This document shows positions 1 through 17,310 of a stretch of DNA of 17,834 bases, piece by piece. This stretch comes from Pelomyxa schiedti. Taxonomy: Eukaryota > Protista > Evosea. Numbering within the stretch: position 1 is the stretch's first letter; each line of letters opens with the position of its first letter. Both the position numbers and the translations under genes were made by a program. The stretch is taken from positions 662 to 18,495 of the forward strand of contig JAHLWZ010000381.1 in assembly GCA_020536535.1 (NCBI GenBank). The letters are read 5' to 3'. Under the pieces are notes generated by a model. It worked only from the letters and a program-made list of their open reading frames with translations. It searched no databases and was not told the origin of the DNA.

Positions 1-102
1 TGCACCCCGTGGCCGATGGTCTTGTAGAAAACGCCTTTTTTTTCCGTCTCAGTTCCTCGTCTCTGGACTGAGAAAACTAATAAACCCGATAAAAAGTGTG
101 CA

Positions 103-136
103 CACTTGGGCAGTCCCAACACTTGGGCAGTCCCAA
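103..136. repeat. perfect tandem duplication of a 17-bp motif (CACTTGGGCAGTCCCAA x2) just upstream of the eIF2-alpha coding start
   Basis: Read directly: copy 1 at 103-119 and copy 2 at 120-136 are identical. Confidence 0.85.
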
Positions 137-160
137 TCGTGGCGGCTATTTGTTGCGAGA

Positions 161-343
161 ATGGCGGATGCATCGCCGTCGCGTGGTACCGTCGAGAGTG
201 CGTCCCACAGCAGTTGTACAACCATTATGGGAGAGTCGTCGCCTGATACGCGCACAGCTGTGGAGCCTCAGGGCGACACCAGATTCCGTGAGTGGGCCGA
301 AGAAAACCGCCAACTATTGAATTGTCGTTTCTACGAGAACGAG
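161..343 (+). CDS. EIF2S1: eIF2-alpha (translation initiation factor 2 alpha subunit), exon 1. It ends ...LLNCRFYENE, which matches the canonical N-terminus MPGLSCRFYQHK. The start codon is uncertain: the in-frame ATG at 161 and the ATG at 227 both give an N-terminal extension.
   Basis: In-frame translation MADASPSRGT...RQLLNCRFYENE followed by donor GTTTTG at 344. The CRFY motif and the downstream exons align to eIF2-alpha as recalled from memory. Confidence 0.6.
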
Positions 344-411
344 GTTTTGTGTTTTGGTTTTGGTTTTGGTTTTGGTTTTGGTTTTGGTTTTGGTTTTGGT
401 TTTGTTTTTGG
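344..411. repeat. (GTTTTG)n microsatellite, about 11 units with 9 perfect units at 351-404, inside intron 1 of eIF2-alpha
   Basis: Read directly. The six-frame ORFs that show FGFGFG or FWFWFW are translations of this repeat. Confidence 0.95.
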
Positions 412-448
412 GATTCAAAAATATATCTTGAAACAAACTTTGCTGCAG

Positions 449-523
449 TGGCCAGAGGTGGAGGAGTGCGTCTTGGCTACTGTTACTAGTGTTACTGATT
501 TGGGTGCATTTGTGGAACTCCCG
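449..523 (+). CDS. EIF2S1: eIF2-alpha exon 2 (WPEVEECVLATVTSVTDLGAFVELP), the start of the S1 domain
   Basis: Acceptor CTGCAG at 448. Aligns to [25 protein letters not shown]. Phase 0 is preserved from exon 1. Donor GTAGTT at 524. Confidence 0.7.
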
Positions 524-589
524 GTAGTTACCTGTTTTTTTTTTTTCCCCTGTGTGTTGTCTAACGACGGTTTGGCCAATCTTTGTTAG

Positions 590-3308: not shown

Positions 3309-6300
3309 GTGAGTGAAACGTTTTGGATTTTGTAGTAAGTTTTGAGTCTGAGTTGATTTGTTTAGGTTACACATGTTGTGGTTAGGCCTGATGATTTGAG
3401 CAGTAATTCATTCAAAGTTCAAGCGATTCTCAAAAAGAACCCAGCAATGCAAGCTGTTCTCGAGACGTGGGTGCAAGATAAAACGAGAGGTGCCAGGAAG
3501 GTGGCACCAAAGCCAAAAGCTCCACCACCTCCACCTACACCTGCCTTTGTTCCACCAGAGGATGACACTATGTCCATGATCAGTGTCAGGACAACTTCGT
3601 CAGTGGCTTCTTCCGCGTCTGCTCTTGCACAAGTTGTTCCAGCGAAACCTGTCCCAGTACCTACTGTAACAATGGTCTTGCCAACTTCAGGTTTTTTGGG
3701 AAAATAAACTGTAACCCGACTTATGCTCCACAGGGCCAAATACTGGAGATTTCCGGCTTGCTCTTTTTGGTGTACACTTTAGACCAGGGCCAGGATTTAA
3801 GCTGAAAATAGGTTCCGTTACAGCAACGGAATACGAGTTCCATAGTAGCTCTTCTGTTATTGTAAATGTACCTCCTTGCACGTATGTTCCCTTCAATGCA
3901 ACAATAAGTCTGAAAGTCTTTAGGGTGCCTCCCGGAACTGTTCCTATACACGCCACAAATGACAATGGGCGCCACTATGGTTTTCCAATGGAGTTCCGTT
4001 TTTATGGTATTTTGTTAAAAAAAACCTATTCCTTCCTCACTAATGAATGAATAGATGCTGGTGCCGGCCAACTTTCCCAGTCAGTTGAACAAAAGGTTCT
4101 TGTGGGTGGTGAGTTCCTTCTACATTAACTTGCTGTCAGATTGCCATTCTCCGTGGGCAGCTTACAAACGTCCGAAGGGCCATTTCTAATATCCAACAAA
4201 CTGAAATCGATTTGAGGACGCAGCTTGCTCAACTCACTGATTTGAAACTATTGGAAGAGCTGGAACCCGAGGAGGTTGAATATATCTTTTGTGTGGAGAC
4301 TTTTTAAGGATTTTAGGTACCTCCTGAGCAAGCTGTGGCAGCTACAGAGAAACCGGCACCTCTTCGACATGAGGAGTTTGAGAGGGAAATTAGGATCTTC
4401 ATTTCCAGTCCATTCAGGGACATGAAGGAGGAGCGAGAGAAGATTGTGTGTTGCTTGTATTTCCTTGTCTCAATTTCCTTACGTTTAACACCATCTACCA
4501 TAGGTTAAACTTGTCATCCCCAAAGTACGCAAGTTATGTATGTCATTAGATGTTGCTGTCAGCTATGTAGATCTAAGATGGTACCTTTTTACTTCTTTAT
4601 TTTGTCTCACGTTTCTTTTTAGGGGTGTCACTGGGGCGCAAAGTGAGCAAGCCACTATGCTTTTGATGTGTCTAAGAGAAGTTGCCAAGTCAAATGTATT
4701 TGTGGGACTTTACGGGGAGCGTTACGGATGGGCAATTTCCAATGAGGGTGACACAAGTAACAACGACCTTCTAAGTCGCTCCTTTGATCTTGCTGCACGT
4801 GAATTCCCGTGGATTAACGAATACAGGGACAGAAGTGTTACTGAACTCGAGATGCGAATGGTACTGGTTTCTATACTGCTTTGCCATGTTCTGATCGTAA
4901 TCAGCTTCTTGGGCATAAATATGATGGTTCTAATAAACCTGCATGGTTCTATCTCCGTGATCCGTATTTCATCGAAGAAGTACCCAAAGAGCAAAGACAT
5001 CTCTTTGTGTCTGAAGGCCCAACTGCAAGTAGAAAGTTATCCACACTCAAGACAGATGTGCATAAAGCTGGACATCCTGTAAAGGACTACCTTCGAGCTG
5101 ATCAGATGGCCGAATTTATGTTTGAGGACTTAAAACAATATGTTGCTAAGAAGTATCCCGAGGTTGACCTACATTTTATCACTCTGAAATTGACCTGTTC
5201 CCAGGGTATGTCACTCAGTGACGAAGAACGTGAAGACCTCCGACATAAGCTCACTTCGCGAAACCTCACCCGTGTATACCTACCAAATGAAAGTAACTTC
5301 CTGGAACTTGACAAATTTGTCTCAAGTGAGAAGGAGTTACCTATGGTCATTGTTGGAGGGGTAGGGAGCAACAAATCCCTCTCCCACATTTAATATGCAC
5401 ATAGGGTGGCAGCGGCAAGTCTGCTTTGATGGCCAACTGGGTGATGAGACACAAGGTACTCAAATAATCATTTTCTCGTTAATATGATAAGGAGCACCAC
5501 CCCGAAGACGTAATTGCATTACACTATGTAGGCTGTTCGCCAGCATCAACGAATTATGCTTTCTTGCTTGGCAGGCTTATGCGGCTGGTACACGCCACTT
5601 TTACCACAGTGAAATTTACTCCATTAGATATCAGAACAACTTGGTGCCGCTGTCGATCTTCCATCTGATCAAAGCAAAACCCCTCTTGCATTTGTTACCT
5701 GGCTTTCCAACCTTTCAGTAGTAAATGTCAACAACCGCCGTATTGTGAGTTTTCTTCTCTTGCGCTTTTATCCAACTAAATTATTCAGATTGTGGTTATC
5801 GATGGTCTTAATAAGTTGGATGAACGAGATAATGCGCAAGAATTATTGTGGTTCCCTCAGTAAGCCAATATTGTCATCTTTATATGCGTTCTTAGTTTTC
5901 AAAAGAACTTTCCCGAGGTTCATGAGTGTCATAGTAACAACAGCTCCGATCCAAAGGATTGCGCATACCCTCAAAGTACCAAAGCCTTCCTTTGGTATTC
6001 AATTTACGCTTTGTAGAAACGCAACTGCCCAACAATGGACCTTGCTCTACTTGAGGAAGCAGAGCGCAAATCTTTTGTCCGAATGTACTTGAACCAGCGT
6101 GCAAAGAAGTTATCTGATCAGCAAGAATTTATGATTGCTTCCGCTGAGCAAACAGCTAATCCCAGGTTCGATTTATTTGGAGACTTAGACTTTTTTTTAT
6201 GCACTGTAGATTCTTACAGACACTCCTTGATGATATTGCAGTATTCGGGGAGCACGAAGCACTCGAAAAACGGATTAAGCAATGTCTTGCAGCGAAGAAC

Positions 6301-8904
6301 ACATCTAAGCTATATGAGCTTCTTCTCAACAGACTTGAATCGGACTATGACCCTGCAAAGAAGGGAATAGTGAAGCTATTCATGGCTTTAATTGGTGCAT
6401 CTAGACGTGGTCTCGATCTAGAAAACGAGGTTTCCGTATTGCTCGAGCAGAGTGGGATCACGCCTGATGAATGGTGCCCCTTTCCACTTCCGCTTTGTCT
6501 TCTGCCCTCTTACACTTGCCACTGCTAAACTTTTAATTACCAATTTAAGGTCCCCTCTGTTTGTAGTCATCGAGGAGCTTTTTATATCTATGAGAGGTAT
6601 ACTGAGCTTCGCAAACGAGGATATTGCTAAGGCTGCAAGATCTGTCTTCCTTTGGGATAAAACAATTAGAAACCAATTTCATCTTAAGATAGCAAATTTC
6701 TTCTCTGGTATACAAGGCTTTACAGAAAGAAAGGTTTCCATCCCAAAAAAAAAAAAAATCAAATTCCTAACTAAAACAAATCAAAAGCTTGAAGAGTTAC
6801 CTTACCAGTTGGAGATGGCCGAAGAATGGCCAAAATTAGTTGCTCTTCTCTGTGATGCAACTCTCTTTGATAAACTCTTCACACCTACAACCAAGTTTGA
6901 CCTGGTACATCTAGAGCCAAAATATTTTGTCTTATTTATGATCAATCCAGTTCCATTGGGTTCGACTGTGTGAAGGCAATGTGCCAGGATTTGATATTTG
7001 TGCCCCGTTTTTGGATAAAGTGTCTCGGAGTATATTCCCACCTGACCTTATCCCAGCTGATTTCTGTTATAAGTAAGTCATTACTGAAACATGACCCGCT
7101 AAAAAACATTACCCATAGGGTTGGCCGGTGCTTTGACGAAATGTCAAAGATTAAAGGAGCCGAGGTAATGTACCAAAAAGCTATTGAGTTATACTATGCC
7201 ACATCCATGCCTCTTGAAGTCGCCAAAGTCAAACGATACTTAGCACAGCTGTACCACATGACCAGCAGGTTTGTCATACCCACCTCGTTTGTTGGTCAAT
7301 TTTTGAAGGAGCGACAAAGCTGAAGCAATGCTGAAGGATCTCACTGAAATTTACGAAAAGGAGAAGGGTCCTGATGATATTGAGATAGCAACTACGTTAA
7401 ACAGTTTGGGAAGTCTATATGTTGACCTTTGCCAGTAAACTGTTCATGACAAGAAGTCAACTATTTACCTTTTTCACAGGGGACCAAGTGCACATCCTGT
7501 TCTAGAACGAGCTTTGCGAATATGTAAGTGACCTTTCCAGGCTTTCTAAGCGTTAAACTACAACAAGGCGAGGCACAAGTCGGTCCTGATCACAATATTA
7601 CTGCTGATATCGCTTATACTCTTGGTGCTTTATATCATTACGAGCGCGACTTACTTCCCAAAAATCTCGAAAAATCGGAAGAATTTCTCAAGGTACCTCT
7701 CCACTCACTAATACAAGTCTTACATGTGACTTAGCGAGCACTGAATATCAAAGAAAAGACATTTGGCTACTACCACCCAGATGTTGCGTGGGTGCTCAAT
7801 AAACTGGGGTGTGTGTACATGGAACAAGATCAGTATAATGATGCTGAAGAGTGCTTTACTGTATGTGGCACTCCTCATCGAGCCTCAGCACTAACTTCCC
7901 TTTAACAGATGGCACTAGAAATTCGAGAAATCTCCCTTGGACCAAAGCACGCTTCCGTAGCACAATCACTGGAAAATGTACTAACACTATTCGCCCTTCA
8001 GGAACGCTACACAACTGCCGAAGACTGTGGCAGAAGGTTGACTATAATAGTGCAATCAGTCCGCTAATGCTTATCTCTCTATAGAGCACTTGACATTCTC
8101 TCTGAAACCTTTGGAGAAAATAGCTTCCAAGTGAGCAGCATATTGCTTCGAGTGGGTGCCCTCATGTTTGTAATGGAGAAGAAACCTCAAGGGACACAAG
8201 ACCTGACTCGCGCAATTGCAATTCGCACAGCGCTTTTTGGACCAGGTCGGTGACGTGCTCTCCATTTGCTTTACTCAAACCCCCCGCCCCCGCCCTCTTC
8301 CAGATCATCCACACACAAAGGAGGCAAAGCTGACCCTGGAGGAGCTGGTGGCACCACCCAAGCCGGAACCGCCATCGATCAGGGAGCAGCCCAAGGCCCC
8401 ACCCCCGCCGCCACCCCCGCCTCCTCGCGCCTTCGTGGCCCCGCCGCCGCCACCCCCAACGCCCGGCGGTGCACCGGGCGGAATCCCGCCGCCCCCGCCG
8501 CCTCCACCTCCGCCGCCTCCCCCTCCTTCATCTGGAAAGCCGCCGCCCAAGACGAAGGTCACTGCTGCTGTGGCCCTGGAGAAGACTGAGAGTGTGTCGC
8601 TTGAGGATGCGATTCAGAAACAGACCGGGCTCCACCACGTCACGGAGGCGAATGATAGGTCCAGCGCCAGGTTGATAATCTCTCTTTCTTCACATATGTA
8701 TTCCTGCCACTTACGGATATTCACACTAGCCGGAATGCAGCAGCCATGGCTGGACTCAAGACCCGTAGGATGGTTGAAGTGAAGGGCAAAGCCAAAGCCC
8801 CCAGGTCCACACTGGCACAGTTCTTGCAAGCAAACAAGGCCACAACCCAGTTCACACAGCAACCAGTACTGGATGTCAAGCCGACGATGGACAAGAAGAG
8901 CTGA
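3174..8904 (+). CDS. span of a multi-exon gene (at least 20 exons) encoding BRCT, IPT/TIG-like, coiled-coil, DUF4062, NACHT NTPase, TPR array, polyproline and WH2-like domains. It is an NPHP3-like STAND protein.
   Basis: A continuous in-frame exon chain with 19 introns of 36-76 nt. The domain motifs were read from the translation. Stop TGA at 8902-8904 and AATAAA at 8907. Confidence 0.75.
3366..3690 (+). CDS. exon 2: the second half of the BRCT domain (VTHVVVRPDD...) plus a Pro/Ser-rich linker
   Basis: Acceptor TTGTTTAG at 3365 after a 57-nt intron. Open frame to the donor at 3691. Confidence 0.6.
3734..4006 (+). CDS. exon 3: IPT/TIG-like beta-sandwich domain (PNTGDFRLALFGVHFRPGPGFKLKIGSVTATEYEFHSSSSVIVNVPPCTYVPFNATISLKVF...FRFY)
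   Basis: A 91-codon open frame with no Met, so it is absent from the ORF track. It is bounded by a 43-nt intron (3691-3733) and donor GTATTT at 4007. It shows the IPT/TIG sequence pattern. Confidence 0.5.
4080..4108 (+). CDS. exon 4, a small exon (VQLNKRFLWV); the acceptor choice is uncertain
   Basis: This is the only phase-compatible connection between exon 3 and exon 5. Donor GTGAGT at 4109. Confidence 0.35.
4161..4274 (+). CDS. exon 5: coiled-coil segment (LTNVRRAISNIQQTEIDLRTQLAQLTDLKLLEELEPEE)
   Basis: Acceptor GTGGGCAG at 4160. Heptad-like composition. A 42-nt intron follows. Confidence 0.55.
4317..4445 (+). CDS. exon 6: the start of DUF4062 (…EFEREIRIFISSPFRDMKEEREKI)
   Basis: The IFISSPFRDM motif matches the NPHP3-type DUF4062 N-terminus VFISSTFRDM. 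Confidence 0.7.
4504..4580 (+). CDS. exon 7: DUF4062 (VKLVIPKVRKLCMSLDVAVSYVDLRW)
   Basis: A 58-nt intron upstream and a 42-nt intron downstream. VDLRWG is a conserved DUF4062 motif. Confidence 0.7.
4623..4860 (+). CDS. exon 8: DUF4062 core (GVTGAQSEQ...CLREV...FVGLYGERYGW...VTELEMRM)
   Basis: GERYGW and TELE are hallmark DUF4062/NPHP3 motifs. The exon is 79 codons plus a split Trp codon. Confidence 0.75.
4905..5360 (+). CDS. exon 9: the linker into the NACHT domain (…AWFYLRD…ELPMVIVGG)
   Basis: 152 codons in phase 0. Ends in the first half of the P-loop. Confidence 0.75.
5405..5455 (+). CDS. exon 10: NACHT Walker A (GGSGKSALMANWVMRHK), which completes GGGGSGKS
   Basis: A 44-nt intron upstream and a 36-nt intron downstream. 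Shows the GxxxxGKS P-loop. Confidence 0.8.
5492..5587 (+). CDS. exon 11 (EHHPEDVIALHYVGCSPASTNYAFLLGRLMRL)
   Basis: Aligns to the NPHP3-type segment after the P-loop. Donor GTACAC gives a 40-nt intron. The alternative 19-nt intron was rejected. Confidence 0.6.
5628..5744 (+). CDS. exon 12 (ISEQLGAAVDLPSDQSKTPLAFVTWLSNLSVVNVNNRRI)
   Basis: Strong donor GTGAGT at 5745. Confidence 0.6.
5789..5859 (+). CDS. exon 13: NACHT Walker B (IVVIDGLNKLDERDNAQELLWFP)
   Basis: Shows the hhhhDGLxxLDE pattern. Strong donor GTAAGC at 5860. Confidence 0.75.
5906..5975 (+). CDS. exon 14 (QTFPRFMSVIVTTAPIQRIAHTLK), the WLP..LP..VrvIvTtR-type NACHT motif
   Basis: A phase-2/1 junction across a 46-nt intron. A 41-nt intron follows. 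Confidence 0.6.
6017..6165 (+). CDS. exon 15 (KRNCPTMDLALLEEAERKSFVRMYLNQRAKKLSDQQEFMIASAEQTANP)
   Basis: In-frame chain. Resembles the NPHP3/NWD-type region ...SKPQSANPLYL. Confidence 0.6.
6210..6473 (+). CDS. exon 16 (RFLQTLLDDIAVFGEHEALEKRIKQCL...VLLEQSGITPDEW)
   Basis: A 44-nt intron upstream. Shows the conserved ...LLxELRVFGxxE-like motif. Confidence 0.6.
6550..6960 (+). CDS. exon 17 and possibly one more exon: the helical region leading into the TPR array (SPLFVVIEEL...KLEELPYQLEMAEEWPKLVALLCDATLFDKL...). The internal exon structure is not resolved. It contains an A13 tract encoding KKKK.
   Basis: A single long open frame. LPYQLxxAxxWxxL resembles the NPHP3/TEP1-type LPYHL..AGEW motif. 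Confidence 0.5.
7000..8245 (+). CDS. TPR array of kinesin-light-chain/NPHP3 type, with at least 6 TPRs over several exons. Examples: AIELYYATSMPLEVAKVKRYLAQLY; LKDLTEIYEKEKGPDDIEIATTLNSLGSLY; ALNIKEKTFGYYHPDVAWVLNKLGCVYMEQDQYNDAEECF; ALEIREISLGPKHASVAQSLENV; ALDILSETFGENSFQVSSILLRVGALMF. Exact exon boundaries were not derived.
   Basis: A repeating 34-aa pattern, A..L.NLA.LY...G.Y.EAE.L..RAL.I.EK..G..HP.VA, in successive short ORFs joined by GT..AG introns. Confidence 0.65.
8304..8670 (+). CDS. penultimate exon: polyproline tracts (PPPPPPPPP...PPPPPPPPPPPPPPP) followed by a verprolin/WIP-type WH2-like motif (SLEDAIQKQTGLHHVTEANDRS)
   Basis: Phase-1 junction from the last TPR exon (donor GTCGGT at 8246, a 58-nt intron). 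The Pro-rich, FH1-like tract and the ...L(K/H)(K/H)VxxxNDRS WH2 consensus are both present. Confidence 0.55.
8730..8904 (+). CDS. terminal exon (SRNAAAMAGLKTRRMVEVKGKAKAP...MDKKS*), with stop TGA at 8902-8904
   Basis: A 59-nt intron (8671-8729), an in-frame stop, then AATAAA. Confidence 0.5.
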
Positions 8905-9132: not shown

Positions 9133-9267
9133 ATGGCGTCAACGGGCGGGTGCTGCGTGCTGCTGTGCGTGGGTAGTGTGGACACAAAAAAGAAGGCAAG
9201 GAGTCAACTGCGTGAGTGTGTCAACAAAGTGAAAGGCTTCACCACAAGTTTCGTCTTCGGCCCAAAG
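9133..9267 (+). CDS. PARP4: PARP4-like gene exon 1, the first half of the BRCT domain (MASTGGCCVLLCVGSVDTKKKARSQLRECVNKVKGFTTSFVFGPK)
   Basis: ATG at 9133. Aligns to the PARP4 N-terminal BRCT (…KKKLQTDIKENGGKFSFSLNPQC) recalled from memory. Donor GTCCGT at 9268. Confidence 0.65.
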
Positions 9268-9280
9268 GTCCGTGCGTGCT

Positions 9281-9347
9281 TTGGTTGTGTTTTTTTTTGG
9301 TTTTTTTGTTTTGTTTTTTGTGTTTTGGTTTTTTGCTTTTGGTTGTC
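9281..9347. repeat. imperfect (GTTTT/GTTTTTT)n T/G-rich microsatellite inside intron 1 of the PARP4-like gene
   Basis: Read directly. It belongs to the same motif family as the repeat at 344-411. Confidence 0.85.
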
Positions 9348-9394
9348 TGTGATCATGTTAATTTTTTTTTCTCTTGGTTGTGTGGACTGCACAG

Positions 9395-9487
9395 GTGACA
9401 CACGTAGTCGTTGACGATGTCGGCTGGAGGATATTTTCTATTTCTCCAAGGAAGATTGACTTGATAAAGAGATTGCGGATACACGTG
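9395..9487 (+). CDS. PARP4: PARP4-like exon 2, the second half of the BRCT domain (VTHVVVDDVGWRIFSISPRKIDLIKRLRIHV)
   Basis: Acceptor CTGCACAG at 9394 after a 127-nt intron. Strong donor GTGAGT at 9488. Aligns to THIILDNADVLSQYQLNSIQKNHVHI. Confidence 0.65.
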
Positions 9488-9556
9488 GTGAGTTGGATGT
9501 TTGAAATTTCCGGAATCTTGTTAGCCACCTTTTTTTTACGACTCTATTTGAATTAG

Positions 9557-9850
9557 GTTACACCTGCCTTTTTAGATGCCTGTACATCAAATAGCAGAAT
9601 TATGGAATGCTCAGATTTTGTGTATAATACTGTGAAGGAGGTTGTACTGAGCACAGAACCTCAGATATACTTGCCACCACAAGAACCAGACCCTGTACCT
9701 CCTGCGCCTGCTGCCTCCAGGGATACTTATATTCGAAGGGAAGTCATTGTTCCCTACAAATCCAAAGATGACCCTTTTAATGAAGCGGGTGCCTGGCTCG
9801 TTCAACACCATCTACTGCAAAAGCCATCATGGTTAGATCATTTTCGTTTC
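9557..9850 (+). CDS. PARP4: PARP4-like exon 3, 3' end approximate (…MECSDFVYNTVKEVVLSTEPQIYLPPQEPDPVPPAPAAS…)
   Basis: Acceptor TGAATTAG at 9556 with a 69-nt intron. Aligns to PDFIWKSIREKRLLDVKNYDPYKPLDITPPPDQ. Confidence 0.5.
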
Positions 9851-9882
9851 TAAGTATCCCTCTTTTCTAATTCGTTTCTAGC

Positions 9883-10191
9883 TTGGTGAAACTAGAATTG
9901 CATACCCGCAGCTCTTCTGATAATGCTTGGCGTGTGTATGAAGAAGTTGTGCCATGCCTTTCCACTGTGCCACCACAGACAAATACTCAGGGGAAATCAA
10001 AAAAGACCATCTCCCAACCAACACACAGGAGGCTGAGCCATCTCTTAGCCTCGGCCTCAGAGGCTATTTCTGTGTACTCCGCTCTCTATGAGAATTATAC
10101 CAACGTTGAAGGCTACACCCGCGTTGGAATACCTCCGTTTTCTTCCTTGGGATCAGATTTGGTATATGCTTCTCCAACGTTCTTTTTTTAA
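9883..10191 (+). CDS. PARP4: PARP4-like coding segment, exon boundaries not derived (…SEAISVYSALYENYTNVEGYTRV…)
   Basis: Aligns to the PARP4 segment SEDASEYFENYIEELKKQGF, recalled from memory. Confidence 0.35.
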   Translation: MVKLELHTRSSSDNAWRVYEEVVPCLSTVPPQTNTQGKSKKTISQPTHRRLSHLLASASEAISVYSALYENYTNVEGYTRVGIPPFSSLGSDLVYASPTFFF

Positions 10192-10711
10192 CTATTAAAA
10201 GATAGGTAATGGATTAAGTCCCGGGTCTGTTCTTCCTGCAATGATATCACAGCTTGTGCAAGTCATTTTTAACGGTCAGTGATGATAGAACTCTGTTTTC
10301 GAATAACATTTTTCAGCTTCATCTTCTAAGTTTGCTGGCTTGAATACTATGACACTGGATATATCATTAGACACTCTAAATGAGGCAGAGGCTATTCTAT
10401 GGTCCCTGCAAGAGCTTAGCCTTTCCAATCAACAAGGCTCTCCGAAATTCATTGAGGTATGGCACTTGAACTCGATCTTTCTCTGTGTAAATTATTTTAA
10501 CAGCTAAATGATAAACTTTCCTCGTTGCTCCCATTTAGTGATCAGCACATAACCTCAAATGAAGCATTGCTTGAGAAATATGAGTTCATCCAAACTCTAA
10601 AAGATTCTCTTTGCCTGAATGAAGGTACCCACTAAACGTGCATATTTAAGCTAATTTTCACCAGGGATCACACTTCCAGGCAGTTCTGTACAGTCCAACT
10701 CCATCATAGAT

Positions 10712-10960
10712 ATGCATTACCGCAGTCTCAATTGTCGTTTGGAATATACAGATGATCCTGCTGTGAGAGAGCTAACTTCCCGTGTCCAAGCCTCTCTAAC
10801 ATCAGCCCCTACCTTGCTACACGTGGAACATGTGTTTCATGTTGCGCGCCCTTCGGAAAATGAAGTCTTTTCTAATGTGGGTAATGTGAAACTTCTATTT
10901 CACGGTACCAAAGTGGAGCGGGTAGCTGGTATTCTTTCACATGGACTGGTTTTACCAAAG
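10712..10960 (+). CDS. PARP4: PARP catalytic domain, part 1 (…NVKLLFHGTKVERVAGILSHGLVLPK), with the donor-loop His-Gly-Thr motif. The 5' boundary is approximate.
   Basis: LLFHGTxxxxxxxILSxGL matches the PARP signature LLWHGSRxxNxxGILSQGL. Donor GTTTCC at 10961. Confidence 0.65.
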
Positions 10961-11096
10961 GTTTCCCTCAAAGCAATTCGATCTATTTTCTCAGTGCCTT
11001 AGGTTTCTGTAACTAAACTTGGAATCAAGAGAGTGGATGCTGGCCAACTTGGGGTGCACATTTGTTTCGTTTAGTTTCGTTTTACATGCCCTACAG

Positions 11097-11285
11097 AATG
11101 GTATATACTTTGCAACAGATGCCGCTGTAAGTGCTAAATACTGTAACTCTTTTGGGGAAACGTCGTTCCTATTGGTGGCTTCAGTTTCCTTAGGCAAATC
11201 TATGGATACACCAGCTCCACGAGTAGGAACCACTGCCGACACTTTACCCAACGGGTATCTGGAAATTCGAAGGGAATTTATTCTC
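11097..11285 (+). CDS. PARP4: PARP catalytic domain, part 2 (NGIYFATDAAVSAKYCNSFGETSFLLVASVSLGKSMD…). The 3' boundary is approximate.
   Basis: Acceptor CCTACAG at 11096. GIYFAxxxSKSxxYC is the PARP signature. Ser sits at the position of the catalytic Glu (LLVASVSLG against LLLGEVALG). Confidence 0.65.
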
Positions 11286-11309
11286 TAATATGTTTCTTCA
11301 GATTCCACA

Positions 11310-11810
11310 GTGTGCACTCCATCCCGAGGCATACCGACCCCAACTCGGCCTTCGAGGATGAGGAATTCTGTGTACCTCTCCCAATTTGTGAAACTGCATC
11401 ATGACCACCGACAGGTATTTGATAGCCGACAAATAATCCTGGAATACATTATCCAACTTACAAAAGCCCCTAAATCAATACCATCAACACTACCAATGCC
11501 GTCTTTTCCACAAGTTTCAATCTCTGATCCAACCACCGCCCCAGACGATCTGAAGTCTATTTTTCTTGCACCACCTTCTCTCAGCGTTTCACCCACGAAA
11601 AAGCAATCTCCTGTATACCCGGTTTTGATTGGTCAAGGCGGAGTACGTTTTTCAGTTGAAAGTACAACTGTGGCAGCCAGAATACTTGATTTAGTGGCTG
11701 AAGTTGTAGTTATTCAACATTTTAGCAATACTGGCGTTGTAGCTTGTGAAGCGAAGTATATATGCCCAATAGATAGCCATGGTTGTATATCTGCCCCCAC
11801 AATACTCTAA
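11310..11810 (+). CDS. PARP4: VIT (vault protein inter-alpha-trypsin) domain region (…VYPVLIGQGGVRFSVESTTVAARILDLVAEVVVIQHFSNTGVVACEAKYICPIDSHGCISA…). Exon boundaries were not derived.
   Basis: Aligns to PARP4 VPLEDVHIKGRIIDTVAQVIVFQTYTNKSHVPIEAKYIFPLDDKAAVCGF, recalled from memory. Confidence 0.5.
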   Translation: MCTPSRGIPTPTRPSRMRNSVYLSQFVKLHHDHRQVFDSRQIILEYIIQLTKAPKSIPSTLPMPSFPQVSISDPTTAPDDLKSIFLAPPSLSVSPTKKQSPVYPVLIGQGGVRFSVESTTVAARILDLVAEVVVIQHFSNTGVVACEAKYICPIDSHGCISAPTIL

Positions 11811-12377
11811 CCTCTCCTAGCTGCTGTTTGTGCTTTCGAATGTTACATAAATGACAAGCATGTAGTGGCACACATAGAAGAAAAAGGTCTTTTTCTTTTT
11901 TTATTGTGCCAATTGAAACAATGTCAAATATTAGGTAAGGCTCGAAAAGAATACAAAGAAGGTACACGTTTGTGCTTGACTTTTTTGTAACTTATAAGAA
12001 TACAGCAATTGAGCAAGGGCATGGAGCGTAGGTAAGCCAGATTCCTTCTACTTCTTTACCTCTATTAGGTATTTACTCGAAGAAGAATCCCCAGATGCAT
12101 GGTGCATGTCTCTTGGAAATCTTCCAGGCATATCTTGCCATGATGTTCTTACTTCCTCTTATTCTTCAAAGCAAACGCCGAAATTGTTGTTAAAATTACA
12201 TATGTGGAAGACCTGGCTTTAGCATCTAATGGGGTAAGTCCGTCAAAAGTAGTGAAATTTGTGTCTAATCAACAATACTCAGATTACCTTTACCTTACCT
12301 GCGGCTCTTGCCGGCCGTGAGGACCGTCTCAATAGTGTAACAACAACCCAAACGGCAGTTGCAACAGTTATCAAAGT

Positions 12378-12662
12378 ATGCTCCAAACAACTAGGGTAGG
12401 TATCTCATTTAGTCAGGCTCATTCCAGCGCGCCGTCATTCCATTTGGAAGCGGGAATTACTATGCCCTATGACATCACTGGCATCACTTCACCATCTCAT
12501 TTGAAAGATGTTCAAGTGAAACACACCAACACAAAGGCAACTGTCAGGGCTTTAATGACGGAACTTACAGCAGACTTTGTACTACTTATTTCTATCAAGA
12601 ACGCCCATGAACCCCGAATGTGGTTGGAAGTAAAGGACTCATCTCTACTGCTTTTTACTTAA
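12378..12662 (+). CDS. PARP4: VIT C-terminal region (…ITMPYDITGI…ALMTELTADFVLLISIKNAHEPRMWLEVKDSS…). Exon boundaries were not derived.
   Basis: Aligns to PARP4 SIEMPYVIEFIF…GFSLHIGLSAAYLPRMWVEKHPE, recalled from memory. Confidence 0.5.
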   Translation: MLQTTRVGISFSQAHSSAPSFHLEAGITMPYDITGITSPSHLKDVQVKHTNTKATVRALMTELTADFVLLISIKNAHEPRMWLEVKDSSLLLFT

Positions 12663-12671
12663 CACTTTCAG

Positions 12672-13148
12672 GTGGATGATACACAAAACTGGGCAGCGAT
12701 GATTTCTATATCCCCAGATTTTCAAAATTATATACAGTCTGCCTGTCAGAGCAGATCTGAGGTCATATTCGTGGTTGACAGGTCCATAAGCATGGCCTCC
12801 AATCTTGCAACTTTACGTTGGGCTCTTCAGGTAATCAGATGGATGATTTTGCACTCTCACGAAACTCAGATACTCATATCCCAACTGGGAAGTGAGGATA
12901 TGTTTAATGTAGTTGGATTTGGATCCCACTTTGAGTCGTTATTTGTACAGTCGCAATCTGCAACTTCCGCCAAACCTGTCGGGTACAGATATGCCCAAAT
13001 GTTACAAGCCACCTTTGGGGGTACTTCCCGTCACCATACCTCCCTCCCCAAGCTTAATCACCTTTTTCAACAGGCACAAATCTTTACTCTGTTCTCAGAG
13101 CAGTGTTTTCTCTTGGTCAATCCAATGACTTCTCTTCAAGAACAGTAA
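12672..13148 (+). CDS. PARP4: von Willebrand factor A (VWA) domain with the MIDAS motif DRSIS (…SEVIFVVDRSISMASNLATLRWALQV…DMFNVVGFGSHFESLF…MLQATFGGT…). Exon boundaries are approximate.
   Basis: Shows the VWA pattern hhhhhDxSxSM....hh......FnhhxFgs........A..Ggt. Confidence 0.6.
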   Translation: MDDTQNWAAMISISPDFQNYIQSACQSRSEVIFVVDRSISMASNLATLRWALQVIRWMILHSHETQILISQLGSEDMFNVVGFGSHFESLFVQSQSATSAKPVGYRYAQMLQATFGGTSRHHTSLPKLNHLFQQAQIFTLFSEQCFLLVNPMTSLQEQ

Positions 13149-13678
13149 TCCTTCTCACTGATGGCCTTTTTGACATTTTTCCCGTATTGCCCATAGTGAA
13201 AAGGTGGAGAGACTCCTTGTATCTCAGTATTAAATCTGTTTAGTGCCCGGGCTCACACCAAACTATTTACTGTTGGAATCGGGGAGGCATCCAGGCATTC
13301 TATTTGCACCCTTGCACGGATAGGTGGGGGATGCTGTCAGTTCGTTCCATCCAATCCCTCACCCAAACATGAGAAACTGTTGAATCACATGTTAGCACAA
13401 CGAAATCAAAATGTGGCTTCCCTAAATTTGGAACATTCTTATACTGTTTTAGACTTTATCTGGTATAAACATCAAGTGGCACACAACACACACAATTAAG
13501 CAAGTACCCTCTGAAATTTACAATATGTTTCAGAATCAGGTTTTCCTCCAAGACTAGTTTTCCTTTTTCTAACACATTAAAGTCTTATACTATTTATGGT
13601 CTCCTTAGTGGCATATGTAACCAGGTGTCAATTCAGGGGAATATCGGAGCACAGTTTTACCCTCACCCAATAAATTAG

Positions 13679-13874
13679 TGGTAATCGAGAGCAGGGAGTT
13701 TTCCACAACAGTGTCATCAAGTGAACTTACTGCTACACATGGCACATTGATTCACAAACTGGCAGCCAGAGAGCTTATTCGAGATTGGGGGGAAAATTCT
13801 CTCCACGAACAGGATACAGAGCACTTTGTACAAAAAAATAATATGGTTTCAGATGTTATTGCTCTAAGTAAAAA
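13679..13874 (+). CDS. PARP4: PARP4-like exon (…TTVSSSELTATHGTLIHKLAARELIRDWGENSLHEQDTEHFVQKNNMVSDVIALSKK). The acceptor is approximate.
   Basis: Aligns to PARP4 TTELQKTTGTMIHKLAARALIRDYEDGILHENE, recalled from memory. Donor GTATGG at 13875. Confidence 0.55.
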
Positions 13875-13928
13875 GTATGGATATCAAAATACAAAAATGG
13901 AGTTAGGATAGTAATATACTACAAAAAG

Positions 13929-14025
13929 GTATGGCTTCATCACTCCTTTTACTTCTTTTGTGGCAGTGGAAGAGAGAAACCGTAATGACGCCTTAGTTTT
14001 GAAAGCACCTTCAGTGAAAGAGATT
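13929..14025 (+). CDS. PARP4: PARP4-like exon (YGFITPFTSFVAVEERNRNDALVLKAPSVKEI)
   Basis: A 54-nt intron (13875-13928). FTSFVAVE matches PARP4 FTSFVAVEKRDE, recalled from memory. GTA at a codon boundary (14026) gives a phase-0 donor. Confidence 0.55.
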
Positions 14026-14068
14026 GTATCAGAGTCTAAATTTTTGTACTTCCTTTGACTGCCAACAG

Positions 14069-14251
14069 CTGCAAGGCCATGACGTCGATGAAATCAAAGA
14101 AATTGCTTGGGAGCATGACCTTGAACCAGTCCCAAAGAAGGACGAACTTCAGAAACAACGAGATTCAAATTCCTTTTCCATTGCTCTTTATGGTGACCCA
14201 CAGACTGGTATAAAAACTCACCCACACTTTTACCTCCTAAGACATCTCAAG
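14069..14251 (+). CDS. exon entering the Ran-like domain (LQGHDVDEIKEIAWEHDLEPVPKKDELQKQRDSNSFSIALYGDPQTGIKTHPHFYLLRHLK). There is no in-frame ATG, so it is probably a continuation of the PARP4-like ORF through a 43-nt intron (14026-14068).
   Basis: FSIALYGDPQTGIKT-HPHFYLLRHL aligns to Ran [21 protein letters not shown]. The P-loop carries a one-residue insertion that displaces the Lys. Donor GTAAAA at 14252. Confidence 0.65.
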
Positions 14252-14324
14252 GTAAAACAGCTTGGCTAAAACGCATGGTTTTTCCTTCAAATTTGCAACC
14301 CAATCCCCATTTATACAACTACAG

Positions 14325-14660
14325 CTGAGCGGGGAGTTTGAGCACAAATACATTGTAACCCAGGAGCCAGAGCAATTCAAACTGACTCTAAGTACAAATC
14401 GAGGTGCTATCCACTTTAATTTGTACGACATGCCTGGTGTAGCTACCAGCACAGCAACCCCTCCTACTGCCCATGATGGTAGTATAGTCTTCTTTGACGT
14501 TACTTCTCGCGCGTCATATAAAAATCTGCCCATCTGGTACATGAAGGCTGGAAGCACTTCCGGTTCACCTACAAGTCCAGTTGTTGTATTTGTTGGCAAT
14601 AAAGTGGACTGCTCAGAACGGAAACTTCATGCTCGACAAATTGTCTTTCATAAGAAAAAG
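14325..14660 (+). CDS. Ran-like GTPase domain core (LSGEFEHKYIVTQ…RGAIHFNLYDMPGVATSTATPPTAHDGSIVFFDVTSRASYKNLPIWY…VVVFVGNKVDCSERKLHARQIVFHKKK)
   Basis: Collinear with Ran [39 protein letters not shown]…[22 protein letters not shown]…[26 protein letters not shown]. The G4 motif NKVD is conserved. G3 DTAGQ is replaced by DMPGV. Confidence 0.75.
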
Positions 14661-14705
14661 GTATTGGCTCTCCTTTCTCAAGTGTCTTCCTGATTGCCAA
14701 TTTAG

Positions 14706-14728
14706 AATTGCAAGTACTATGACCTAAG
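14706..14728 (+). CDS. 23-nt micro-exon (NCKYYDL), matching Ran NLQYYDIS
   Basis: Flanked by 45-nt and 44-nt introns (donors GTATTG and GTACCT). Confidence 0.6.
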
Positions 14729-14772
14729 GTACCTCCTTTTATGATATCCACTCTTAAGTATTTACTCTTTAG

Positions 14773-14832
14773 TGTTAAATCTTCGTACAACCTGGAGTCA
14801 CCTCTACTAAGTCTTGCCCGGTCCCTTTTATG
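14773..14832 (+). CDS. Ran-like exon (SVKSSYNLESPLLSLARSLL + C), matching Ran [21 protein letters not shown]
   Basis: The G5 motif SAK is retained as SVK. A 40-nt intron (14833-14872) restores the frame into the next exon. Confidence 0.55.
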
Positions 14833-14872
14833 GTTGTGCACAATCCTTCTCCCTGAATTTAATTCTTCTCAG

Positions 14873-16297
14873 TGACCCACAATTGGAGTTTGTTCAAGAA
14901 GTGGCACTTGCTCCACCTGAAGTAACTTTGGATCAGGCATTAATAAAGAGGTGGGAACAGGATTTAGCTGATGCAGCATCAATCCCCCTTCCCGATGAGG
15001 ATGATGACTTTGGAGGCACTGTTCCATCCAGTGCTGTCGCTCCTCAGCATGCAGTGCCGTCCAGTACCTTTGATTTCGCTCTCCGACCAAGCAAAGAAAA
15101 AAGTGCACCAGGTCCAACAGGCTTTTTCAGTCAATCTGCTACAGTTCCATCTGTGCAAGCTTCTGTTACCCATTCAGTACCATCTCTTTTTAGCTCTCCA
15201 GTTGCACCTTCCTTTAATTTCGCTTCACAAGCCACTACCTCTCGAGGGTTATTTTCTCCCCAAGGACAAGTGACGTCAACTCAACCTTCTCCTCTATTTG
15301 GCGCACCTCTGCCCTCCTATACTCCACCGGCCCCGTCACCTTTTGGTAGTTCTTCATCATTGTTTTCTGGCAGTTCGTTTGGATCTCAACCACAACCTTC
15401 TACCGCTGCATTTGGCACTGCAAGCACTTCTTCACTTTTTGGCGGATCCCAACAGGTACCTGCCTCGAGTGGGGGCGCTGTGAGTGCGTTTGGAGCTCTA
15501 GCATCTCCTACTTCCGTTTTTCCACAGGCATCATTTGGCATGGCAAGCCCTGCAATGTCCACTACAATCCCTGCAGCCACTTGTTGTCTGCCGTCCATCT
15601 TTCCTGCAGCCAGTTCTACTACTTCCACTCTCTTTTCTGCACCACAAATATTTCCCTCGGCCGCATCTTCCACAGCACAGTTGTTCCCAGCGCCTCAATT
15701 GTCCTCTTTCCCAACATTCAGTCTACCGGCCACTCCTGCAGCCAGTTGTACGTCCACCTTCAGTCTACAGGCCTTTCCTGCAGCCAGTTCTACTACTTCC
15801 ACTCTCTTTTCTACACCACAAGTATTTTCCTCTGCACCAACTTCCGTAACGGCGTTGCCGCCGGCGCAGCAATTACCGTCTTCCGCCACTTTTGCTCCAC
15901 CCACTACTCCACAGCTCAGGTCTCCACATCCTGGGACTGGAACAATTTCATTTGCAGCTGCCAGAGCGCGAAGCAAGGCATTTCAAAATAGGAAACACTC
16001 TGAATCAGATATTAGTAATACAAGCAAGTCTTCAATTGACCCTCCCTTGCCTCCGTTCTGCTGCCGTGCTTGTTGCAGCCCCTCCACACTCAGTGATTCC
16101 CAATTGCAGTTTGTACTTAAGGGACCTAAGAATACGAAGAGGATCTGGGGTGTGTGCTGGATGGATGCCGTTCTTGCATTAGCATCAACCTTGTCACCTT
16201 TACGTGACTGGGCATGTTGTACTAGGAACGGAGAACCTCCTATTGGCTATGCTGGCAGCTTACTTGAGTGTATCACATCATTTTTCCGCTGTTGGAT
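14873..16297 (+). CDS. Ran C-terminal tail (DPQLEFVQEVALAPPEV…LADAASIPLPDEDDD) that continues, with no stop, into a roughly 470-aa FG/SLFG/AFG-repeat low-complexity region (nucleoporin-like). It ends at TAA 16299-16301, or splices at the GTAAGT donor at 16298.
   Basis: A 495-codon open frame. DPQLEFV..ALAPPEV…PDEDDD matches the Ran C-terminus DPNLEFVAMPALAPPEV…LPDEDDDL. Many xFG, SLFG and FGxxS repeats follow. Confidence 0.65.
15568..15915. repeat. in-frame tandem duplication of about 174 bp inside the FG-like region, with unit starts CCTGCAGCCA… at 15568, 15603, 15736 and 15777
   Basis: Read directly. TTTCCTGCAGCCAGTTCTACTACTTCCACTCTCTTTTCT recurs at 15597 and 15771. The protein repeats are FPAASSTTSTLFSAPQIF and FPAASSTTSTLFSTPQVF. 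Confidence 0.7.
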
Positions 16298-16338
16298 GTA
16301 AGTAATTCATCAACCTATCAATGTTTCAACCCCTTAAG

Positions 16339-16688
16339 ATCTGAGGACGTAGGAAGTGTAACTTACAATAAGTATCTGAATACGACACACAAACGCACAG
16401 CAAGCAAATTTTCCGATCTCGGATTCGCCGAAGGAAAGCCACAGTGCGTTGTCAAGGCACTCAATTGCTTGATTGAGGAAGCTTCACTATTTATTACAGA
16501 GGTAGGTAGAACATTCATGCTTTCCCTTACAAGCATGACTGTACAGGTACGAGACATTATTACTGTGCCCTCCACAAATCTTGGGGAGATCCTCACACGT
16601 AAATTGGAACAAATAATTCCGCAAATAATCACAATTTCAGAGTTTACTGTTGCAAGTGCACCTCCAAAGTGGATCATATGTATAAATA
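16339..16688 (+). CDS. tentative continuation exon after a 41-nt intron (ISEDVGSVTYNKYLNTTHKRTASKFSDLGFAEGKPQCVVKALNCLIEEASLFITE…WIICIN). The product is unknown, possibly the C-terminal globular domain of the PARP4-like protein.
   Basis: In-frame with the FG exon through GTAAGT 16298 and AG 16338. Open for 116 codons. Long ORFs on both strands overlap here. Confidence 0.3.
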
Positions 16689-16756
16689 GTACATGCAGGA
16701 AGATACCTCGTACCACTTTATACCAATACAAGCTAGGTCTAATTTGATTTTGATAG

Positions 16757-17310
16757 GGATACCAGACGATTGTGCCTATGTTTTGCATTCTTTCATTGTA
16801 TTTGAACCCATTGGGAAGTATTTTGACATGCCGGTGAATCACTTTGTTACCGTATCCCCCGACCAGAAGGGCTACTGGATATACGATGATCTGTTGTGCC
16901 TCACTCCTGGAGGTCTGTGCTCCCCGCACCATGCTTTCCACACAGTCGATTCTAATGCCGTAACAACAACAGAATGGCAAGGCGGATTCTGTTCGTGGGA
17001 CTCTCCGGACAGTACCCAAACATTCAAGAAACTCCGTTCCAAAGTTCCTGTGAGCACTCCTGATCCCAACCAACACCCTTCTCATGCCAACACATATAAT
17101 GACCAAACATTAGGTTTTCATTCTACGGCACCAAGATGTCCCTTGGCCACCAACAAGTACCTACCAGGCTCCTCGTTTGCGCTCCGAACAGTTCTCACAG
17201 TACTGAACTCCAACATTCTAAGCATAAAACAGAGAAGCATAAAGTTTCGTTTTTTTTTCATGTACACATTCCACACGGCCAAGACACAAAATCTGGTCCG
17301 TTCAGAATAA
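16757..17310 (+). CDS. tentative further exon (R IPDDCAYVLHSFIVFEPIGKYFDMPVNHFVTVSPDQKGYWIYDDLLCLTPGG…), with stop TAA at 17308-17310
   Basis: A possible 68-nt intron (16689-16756) joins the two + frames. AATAAA lies about 190 nt downstream at 17501. A 240-aa ORF lies on the opposite strand. Confidence 0.3.

Follow-up and report, generated by a model that had tools for sequence, protein, structure and literature searches.

Ran is normally a free single-domain switch. RanGAP, its GTPase-activating protein (GAP), supplies no arginine finger and depends on Gln69 of Ran. RCC1, NTF2 and the karyopherins touch switch II and the neighbouring helices (alpha3), and Ran-binding domains embrace the C-terminal extension and its acidic tail. 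The laboratory variants Ran Q69L and Ran G19V keep the native switch II and alpha3 segments and still bind karyopherins and RCC1. Both are locked with GTP through absent GTPase activity (PMC2156118). Here we describe a Ran-derived domain that lies inside a PARP4-like protein of Pelomyxa schiedti (Evosea) and that probably binds nucleotide without taking part in the Ran cycle. It is encoded in a stretch of 17,834 nucleotides (nt) of assembly GCA_020536535.1 (contig JAHLWZ010000381.1, positions 662 to 18,495, forward strand); we call this whole stretch the window, and all positions are counted from its first letter.

Two other bodies of work provide the frame for this locus. The classification published by Stiegler and Boggon in 2020 is said to place the Rnd proteins and RhoH among nucleotide-binding, hydrolysis-deficient pseudo-GTPases. 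Class i pseudo-GTPases, such as the psGD of AAGAB and pG1/pG2 of p190RhoGAP, use the GTPase fold as a protein-interaction module (PMC12490416, PMC5593906) and have neither G motifs nor nucleotide binding (PMC12490416). Perina et al. (2014) describe a PARP4-like clade that is expanded in Amoebozoa and in which VIT-VWA occurs with 14-3-3, actin or actin-binding, and ubiquitin-related domains (PMC4245714). Our literature search found no paper linking PARP4 with Pelomyxa, Mastigamoeba or Archamoebae.

The Ran-like region corresponds to residues ~1251-1456 of KAH3763470.1 (P0008), a protein of 2087 residues deposited for P. schiedti as 'protein mono-ADP-ribosyltransferase PARP4'. Spliced mapping places this protein exactly on positions 9133-17203 of the + strand, in 39 exons and 38 introns, with the domain order BRCT-like, PARP, VIT, VWA, Ran-like, phenylalanine-glycine (FG)-like repeats and a C-terminal region. 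When the 112-residue main Ran-like exon was compared with 1.84 billion representative proteins in an exhaustive HMMER search, the one match at 100% identity was this same protein. The PARP, VIT and VWA domains (Table 1) all exceed the Pfam cut-off and are followed by a Ras match at residues 1254-1408; the BRCT match at residues 17-85 is weak (E=0.0055, below the cut-off). The best solved relative of the PARP domain is human PARP4 (3e-31, vs 3e-12 for PARP2), with which the His, Tyr and Glu triad positions align. Judged by its sequence, the host protein has the features of PARP4, or vault PARP (clade 5), namely a PARP domain closest to that of PARP4, followed by VIT and VWA. Its introns are mostly short, 34 of the 38 measuring 39-54 nt and the other four 60, 64, 69 and 127 nt. 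Gene models of P. schiedti were obtained by Augustus prediction, followed by PASA and EVM using single-cell transcriptomes (PMC8887013). The sole GC-AG intron of the gene (12128-12171) fits the frequency of 1.59% found for such introns in this genome (PMC8887013).

An earlier reading of the DNA letters, to which we refer as the original prediction, had described a Ran paralogue that is a pseudo-GTPase. The coding region is indeed Ran-derived, but it does not stand as a gene by itself. No in-frame ATG precedes the P-loop in its first exon (14069-14207), which is joined in frame to the exon that ends the VWA portion. The term paralogue is misleading, because the domain can be translated only as an internal part of the PARP4-like protein. 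Canonical Ran/Gsp1 is a free protein of 25 kDa, whereas the DEDDD acidic tail of the Pelomyxa domain is internal and runs on into the FG-like region instead of ending the protein. This fusion of a Ran-like domain to PARP4, so far found in one species, is the unusual feature of the locus.

The spliced domain matches solved Ran structures with E=1e-54 over Ran residues 10-215 and the Pfam Ras family with 1.9e-17. It is most closely related to Ran, not to Rab, Ras, Rho or Arf proteins, and within the Rans to the canonical members (45-49% identity), not to a divergent Ran-like lineage. In the alignment the G-box motifs GDPQTGKT, DMPG, NKVD and SVK match Ran without internal gaps. The domain has the Ran fold and all guanine-nucleotide-binding motifs, including the switch I Thr and DxxG. 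With canonical Ran it shares G1 (GxxxxGKT), Tyr39, Thr42, Asp65, Gly68, NKVD, S-x-K and the H(R/K)KK basic patch, here FHKKK, as well as the C-terminal linker, helix and DEDDD tail. The original prediction had read several of these correctly: the switch I Thr lies in KYIVT, G4 is exactly NKVD, and SAK of G5 survives as SVK.

The P-loop is where that prediction has to be revised. It had read GDPQTGIKT, a one-residue insertion that moves the Lys out of register; this string draws on bases 14208-14218, with which a 44-nt intron begins. From the sequence alone, by three-frame translation of positions 13900-16600, we placed six GT-AG introns of 40-47 nt between 14026 and 14872 (Table 1), and all of them match the deposited model. 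The spliced product reads ...FSIALYGDPQTGKTAWLKRMLSGEFEHKYIVTQEPEQFKLTLSTNRGAIHFNLYDMPGVATSTATPPTAHDGSIVFFDVTSRASYKNLPIWYMKAGSTSGSPTSPVVVFVGNKVDCSERKLHARQIVFHKKKNCKYYDLSVKSSYNLESPLLSLARSLLCDPQLEFVQEVALAPPEVTLDQALIKRWEQDLADAASIPLPDEDDDFGG..., and its P-loop, GDPQTGKTAWLKRM, is a canonical GxxxxGKT that continues with LSGEFEHKY and is gap-free against Ran; the stretch GDPQTGKTAWLKRMLSGEFE equals Ran in length and shows no gap against seven canonical Rans. Against human Ran, the version with the 26-nt micro-exon reaches 188.4 bits, 16.5 more than the read-through version (171.9). The micro-exon model needs introns of 44 and 47 nt, inside the 39-54-nt mode, and the read-through model requires one of 73 nt. 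Homology, intron length and the deposited model thus agree in favouring the micro-exon. Once the exons are defined in this way the P-loop Lys is present, an outcome that the original prediction had named as one that would overturn it, together with a restored switch II Gln; the latter stays absent. Since the displaced Lys is an artefact, the case for a non-cycling domain rests on hydrolysis and not on nucleotide binding. In this gene the P-loop lysine is carried by a 26-nt exon, and where a genome has micro-exons and introns of 40-50 nt, what looks like a motif 'defect' in raw sequence can be a splice artefact.

Downstream of the P-loop, the catalytic Gln is lost as predicted: DMPGV retains Asp65 and Gly68 but has Val for Gln69. 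The claim that a Thr/Pro-rich sequence replaces the segment corresponding to GLRDGYYI also holds (ATSTATPPTAHDG). Where native Ran has the switch II sequence WDTAGQEKFGGLRDGYY, the domain has YDMPGVATSTATPPTAHDG, with 4/16 positions identical. A hidden intron that would restore Gln69 or a native switch II was ruled out by exhaustive enumeration, as none of the 124 stop-free in-frame GT/GC-AG excisions within exon 14325-14660 restores the Gln or raises the Ran match by >1 bit. Further departures from canonical Ran are Pro-Gln in place of P-loop Gly19-Gly20 and a rewritten alpha3 region, which keeps 7/19 positions; its segment MKAGSTSGSPTSP is 3 residues longer than the Ran counterpart, and the equivalents of Arg106 and Arg110 are lost. 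Both rewritten segments are S/T/P-rich loops. The best-conserved part of the domain is the C-terminal extension, in which 27/46 residues are identical to human Ran and all 15 of the 15 positions invariant in seven canonical Rans are kept, LPDEDDD included; the basic patch is also kept.

Structure prediction, one of the checks proposed with the original prediction, indicates that the GTPase fold is retained. An AlphaFold run with an 8-sequence alignment, whose predicted local distance difference test (pLDDT) score was 56, was discarded, and 90 Ran-family sequences were used instead. The resulting model has a mean pLDDT of 90.8 and superposes on Ran at 1.5 Å. Blocks of 10 residues over the P-loop, G4 and G5 average 94-98 (94-97 for the P-loop block), the model has no helix where Ran has alpha2 (pLDDT ~84), and the rewritten alpha3 loop reaches ~82. 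The top Foldseek matches of the model are Ran-GppNHp complexes. From the high block scores and these matches, the core and the elements that form the nucleotide pocket are predicted to be intact.

The view that this is a maintained coding domain and not a decaying pseudogene is also supported. Its ~206 codons are spread over 6 exons without stops or frameshifts, and all GT-AG sites and the 6 junctions are intact. Conservation is patterned: the positions that we take to contact the nucleotide or Mg in Ran structures are kept in 16/22 cases vs 85/185 elsewhere (Fisher p=0.023). When neutral evolution was simulated from a Ran coding sequence with substitutions only, 0.5% of runs reached 49% identity without a stop, the mean being 5.3 stops. 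The domain has a GC content at third codon positions (GC3) of 0.383, compared with 0.389 for the host gene upstream of it. The best reading of these sequence data is that the Ran-derived domain is kept under selection.

The same exon that encodes the Ran tail (14873-16297) continues, as one open reading frame (ORF), into the FG-like low-complexity region of 309 residues. Its composition is dominated by Ser (67), Pro (46), Ala (43), Thr (36) and Phe (28), with only 7 charged residues. Phe residues are spaced by roughly 10 residues, with near-repeats such as IFPAASSTTSTLFSAPQ and AFPAASSTTSTLFSTPQ, and seven FG dipeptides fall within 80 residues (1552-1631; p=1e-4 vs shuffles). FG motifs with uncharged Ser/Thr-rich spacers are what FG-nucleoporin-type repeats display. 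Pfam gave no family in the FG-like or C-terminal region that would indicate a pore-anchoring domain or nucleoporin homology.

The remaining C-terminal region (window 15945-17203, residues 1768-2087) has a less certain gene model, with 6 introns. PARP4 has its interaction region for the major vault protein at this end. Here the 320 residues have no Pfam match and no PDB sequence match, and they do not resemble human PARP4, of which the PDB set contains the full length. By eye we had noted a Cys box (WGVCWMDAVLALAS) and a His box (YVLHSFIVF...NHFVTVSPDQKGYWIYDD) resembling those of ubiquitin-specific proteases, a candidate that was rejected after the Pfam and PDB searches gave nothing.

We consider it probable that the internal Ran-derived G domain of this PARP4-like protein is nucleotide-binding, hydrolysis-deficient and non-cycling. 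It would retain the binding of GTP or GDP with Mg. RanGAP-type hydrolysis, which depends on Gln69, should be impossible, and the surfaces for RCC1, NTF2 and the karyopherins would be lost, precluding reloading by RCC1. Because both RanGAP-type hydrolysis and these surfaces would be gone, the domain is expected to take no part in the Ran cycle and to be a non-switching module that is always loaded with nucleotide, most likely GTP. Its conserved face would correspond to the one that in Ran engages Ran-binding domains and takes part in the C-terminal switch. Since the domain adjoins FG-like repeats, coupling to nuclear-transport components is suggested, and we speculate that such components, by way of the conserved face and the repeats, may anchor or control the PARP4-like enzyme.

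The comparison with known systems is consistent with this proposal in several respects. The domain is substituted at the same two positions as Ran Q69L and Ran G19V, and its best-scoring PDB sequence is that of Gln69Leu Ran (WDTAGLEKF). The non-hydrolysing character proposed in the original prediction is accordingly supported as regards the loss of the Gln, both locking positions (PMC2156118) being changed, while the P-loop defect that it also invoked falls away. Unlike the laboratory variants, the Pelomyxa domain has rewritten switch II and alpha3 surfaces, which makes RCC1 loading and canonical effector binding unlikely. For the same reason, the suggestion that it presents a locked, Ran-like surface to transport receptors is doubtful, because the parts contacted by karyopherins, RCC1 and NTF2 are those that have been rewritten; a RanBP-type partner, also suggested, is plausible in view of the conserved basic patch and C-terminal extension.

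Among pseudo-GTPases, the domain is like Rnd and RhoH in having intact binding motifs, substituted catalytic residues (equivalents of Gly12 and Gln61) and a predicted GTP-bound, non-switching state; it differs from them in being derived from Ran and not from Rho and in its embedding in a multidomain enzyme. Assignment to the nucleotide-free class i was rejected, as the P-loop is in register after splicing and G1, DxxG, G4 and G5 are present. On the side of the host, a PARP-VIT-VWA core with an extra whole-protein domain is what characterizes the amoebozoan PARP4-like proteins of clade 5, and the Ran appendage fits their pattern of appended domains, although the accessible part of PMC4245714 does not mention a Ran or small-GTPase appendage.

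Several observations weigh against this proposal. The Pro-Gln P-loop, together with Thr25Ala, Lys37His and Ala151Val, could weaken nucleotide binding, and some GTPase families with a hydrophobic residue at the position of the catalytic Gln hydrolyse GTP otherwise. The evidence for the micro-exon and for the join between the VWA and Ran portions consists of homology, the statistics of intron size and the deposited model. Splice-site matrices built from the other 36 introns of the gene do not discriminate between the P-loop models, and the read-through donor at 14252 (AAG|GTAAAA) scores 7.4, vs 4.5 for the donor at 14208. The two splicings of 14208-14324 are both in frame and stop-free, their products differing by 6 codons; given this and the good donor at 14252, a read-through isoform with a disrupted P-loop could exist as a minor form. 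Finally, no orthologue was found among the best 150 matches of the exhaustive search, in the word search with the full-length protein or in the metagenome scan, where 348 pattern matches gave 0 confirmed cases. The full-length word search returned only the host protein itself and was probably swamped by low-complexity words; a query with the spliced domain gave 7 canonical Rans and nothing else, failing to recover the host protein; and one with the VWA-to-Ran segment returned ~100 VIT-VWA proteins and no PARP-VIT-VWA-Ran relative. As the word index failed to return KAH3763470.1 even for exact sub-sequence queries, its negatives are weak and do not amount to absence.

In principle, alternative splicing of 14208-14324 could switch the P-loop from intact to disrupted and back.

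Of the alternatives, the one that survives best, though we regard it as unlikely, is that the domain is still a cycling GTPase with non-canonical hydrolysis, the catalytic residue coming from elsewhere in the protein or from a lineage-specific GAP. Rap offers a precedent, as it has no Gln61 and its GAP supplies an Asn, and so do GTPases in which a hydrophobic residue occupies the Gln position. All motifs that bind nucleotide persist here, as do the switch I Thr and DxxG, and the co-conservation of the basic patch with the acidic tail, that is, of Ran's nucleotide-dependent C-terminal switch, suggests that a conformational switch may matter. In addition, 16/102 (~16%) of the Ran-like representatives with intact GK, DxxG and NKxD have no Gln69, a recurrent and apparently viable state. 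Against this, both GTP-locking positions, Gly19 and Gln69, are changed at once, switch II, which bears and positions the catalytic machinery, has become a Thr/Pro-rich loop with no predicted helix, and no candidate GAP or catalytic residue in cis was identified.

A broader conjecture, distinctly unlikely in our estimate, makes the amoebozoan PARP4-like proteins modular sensors with built-in copies of hub proteins (14-3-3, actin and ubiquitin-related domains, as in PMC4245714, and here Ran), in which a hydrolysis-dead, permanently 'GTP-like' Ran beside FG repeats would act as a bait or as a pore tether. The narrower proposal of an integrated bait or built-in substrate, in which PARP4-like proteins of Amoebozoa would time and again take up abundant hub proteins as whole copies, is very unlikely. 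The Ran copy would mimic a target, for instance of effectors from intracellular microbes or of the ADP-ribosyltransferase in the same protein, without any part in GTPase signalling. The proposal draws on the hub-protein domains appended to amoebozoan PARP4-like proteins (PMC4245714), on the dispensability of catalysis in a bait, compatible with the loss of Gln69, and on the upstream neighbour, which combines DUF4062, a domain tied in a 2026 preprint to bacterial immunity and the vault protein TEP1, with an NPHP3-like helical region of the STAND-NTPase type. The argument proceeds by analogy alone, however; the surfaces recognised by effectors should persist in a bait, but no part of the domain is more altered than the switch regions, and the neighbouring gene is possibly a coincidence.

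That the domain lacks any function is very improbable, whether it is seen as what is left of a captured Ran gene decaying within the PARP4 transcript or as an annotation chimera with a neighbouring Ran-like gene. Ran family members are far more alike than the 47-49% identity seen here, two segments have decayed into low-complexity S/T/P sequence, no orthologue appeared in ~15 billion proteins or in metagenome contigs, and the assembly comes from single-cell amplified DNA. Decay is countered by the open frame, which few neutral simulations achieve, by a GC3 that matches the rest of the gene, and by patterned conservation, which spares the binding motifs and the C-terminal extension but not switch II and alpha3; a chimera is countered by the absence of a start codon, the in-frame join to the VWA-tail exon and the last exon entering the FG-like region. 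The out-of-register P-loop (GDPQTGIKT), with impaired phosphate and Mg binding and hydrolysis in a near nucleotide-free pseudo-GTPase, is highly improbable despite its open frame and good donor, since the micro-exon splice restores a gap-free GxxxxGKT with a gain of 16.5 bits and modal introns, the deposited, transcript-refined model contains the micro-exon, and the AlphaFold block with the P-loop averages a pLDDT of 94-97.

The Ran-derived domain can also be set beside other divergent Ran-like proteins of protists, including tandem forms (P0009-P0014, P0122). Several tandem-Ran proteins have a degenerate switch II, and in some of the divergent proteins it is shortened or Thr/Ser-rich, for example P0012 ('WDCSGQTTSTPEF'), but none is close to the Pelomyxa domain and none is fused to PARP-VIT-VWA. 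The foraminiferan P0122 has a similar P-loop, GNPQVGKT, and is only 35% identical; given this identity and its place in Rhizaria, we take the common motif to be convergence. Membership of the domain in an existing Gln-less lineage (P0012, P0122) was rejected, as its nearest relatives are canonical Rans. Among the best 150 relatives of the main Ran-like exon there is no second PARP4-like protein with a Ran appendage, all proteins besides the host being of <=672 residues. Both Gln-less Ran-likes and PARP4-like proteins with appended domains are already known.

Unnamed multi-domain Ran-like proteins do occur in public data, among them tandem double-Rans, some with one degenerate copy, and P0012, a double-Ran with a histone-H2A-like C-terminus. 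With the VWA-to-Ran segment as query, the word index yielded just two GTPase fusions: a Rab-VIT-VWA transcript of Physarum (P0161) and an S1-repeat-Ran protein of Symbiodinium (P0170). Ran may be commoner as a fusion module in protists than the literature suggests.

Table 1. Coordinates of the features of the PARP4-like gene, in window positions.
Feature	Position	Strand	Evidence
PARP catalytic domain, residues 411-579	10778-11459	+	Pfam PF00644 2.8e-22
VIT (residues 646-755) and VWA (residues 897-1047)	11658-13343	+	Pfam VIT 1.6e-31, VWA_3 7.2e-14
VWA-tail exon (...FTSFVAVEERN...SVKEI)	13929-14025	+	tail SKKYGFITPFTSFVAVEERN typical of VIT-VWA proteins
43-nt intron; joins VWA-tail exon in frame to first Ran-like exon	14026-14068	+	spliced mapping
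Exon: linker, strand beta1 (FSIALYG), P-loop start (GDPQT and first Gly base)	14069-14207	+	spliced mapping
44-nt intron (GTATAA...TCAAG)	14208-14251	+	splice-site scores within range of the gene's other introns
26-nt micro-exon GTAAAACAGCTTGGCTAAAACGCATG, (G)KTAWLKRM: Lys23 and Thr24 equivalents, helix alpha1	14252-14277	+	spliced mapping
47-nt intron	14278-14324	+	spliced mapping
Main Ran-like exon, 112 residues: KYIVT, beta2-beta3, DMPGV, rewritten switch II, beta4, alpha3, NKVD, FHKKK	14325-14660	+	
G3 DMPGV (14427-14441), then ATSTATPPTAHDG (14442-14480) in place of switch II/alpha2	14427-14480	+	
Rewritten C-terminal half of alpha3 and loop to beta5, MKAGSTSGSPTSP	14541-14579	+	alignment
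G4 NKVD, guanine specificity	14598-14609	+	alignment
Introns 14661-14705, 14729-14772 and 14833-14872 around two small exons	14661-14872	+	spliced mapping
Small exon: NCKYYDL and two bases of the G5 Ser codon	14706-14728	+	
G5 SVK, Ser codon split by intron 14729-14772	14727-14779	+	
Small exon: third Ser-codon base, VKSSYNLESPLLSLARSLL, first two Cys bases	14773-14832	+	
Ran-specific C-terminal extension: linker, helix, acidic tail (DPQLEFV...ALAPPEV...LPDEDDDF)	14873-15011	+	
FG-like low-complexity region, 309 residues (1459-1767), same exon as Ran tail	15018-15944	+	

Other genes in the window were also inspected. Just upstream of the PARP4-like gene, a gene at ~4540-7323 (+) has a DUF4062 match above the cut-off (2.3e-07), a weak match to the nephrocystin-3 helical domain and a P-loop-like 'VIVGGVGSNKS', and on these three matches it looks like a STAND-NTPase. 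A 2026 preprint renames DUF4062 as an NADase domain common to bacterial immunity and the vault protein TEP1 (10.64898/2026.09.04.749371), so two vault-related gene types may be adjacent here. An ORF at 8216-8782 (+), located in a local GC peak of 0.51-0.55 just upstream of the PARP4 start, has long poly-proline runs (PPPPPPPPPPRAFVAPPPPPP...) of the formin or WASP type and no Pfam match. Another raw ORF without Pfam match, at 98-589 (+), contains a (GF)n run, GFGFGFGFGFGFGFGF, followed by S1-like sequence, ECVLATVTSVTDLGAFVEL, and may be an eIF2-alpha-like first exon.

More notable than the loss of motifs is the architecture of the gene, with a probably non-cycling Ran-derived G domain and FG-type repeats in a homologue of the vault PARP. 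An embedded Ran that is without its catalytic Gln and its RCC1/karyopherin face, and that keeps the pocket and the tail bound by Ran-binding domains, would be a natural dissection of the surfaces of Ran, indicating which parts can be retained for a non-cycling role. Vaults have been observed at the nuclear pore (PMC12547018), and the presence of a Ran-like domain with FG-type repeats in this protein bears on the old idea that vault components are connected to the pore. If the domain were a bait, it would be a lure for factors that attack the nuclear-transport system. If it were a tether, a vault-type PARP would be docked at the nuclear pore, on transport receptors and proteins with Ran-binding domains, which would be the first genetic link between a vault PARP and the Ran/FG transport machinery.

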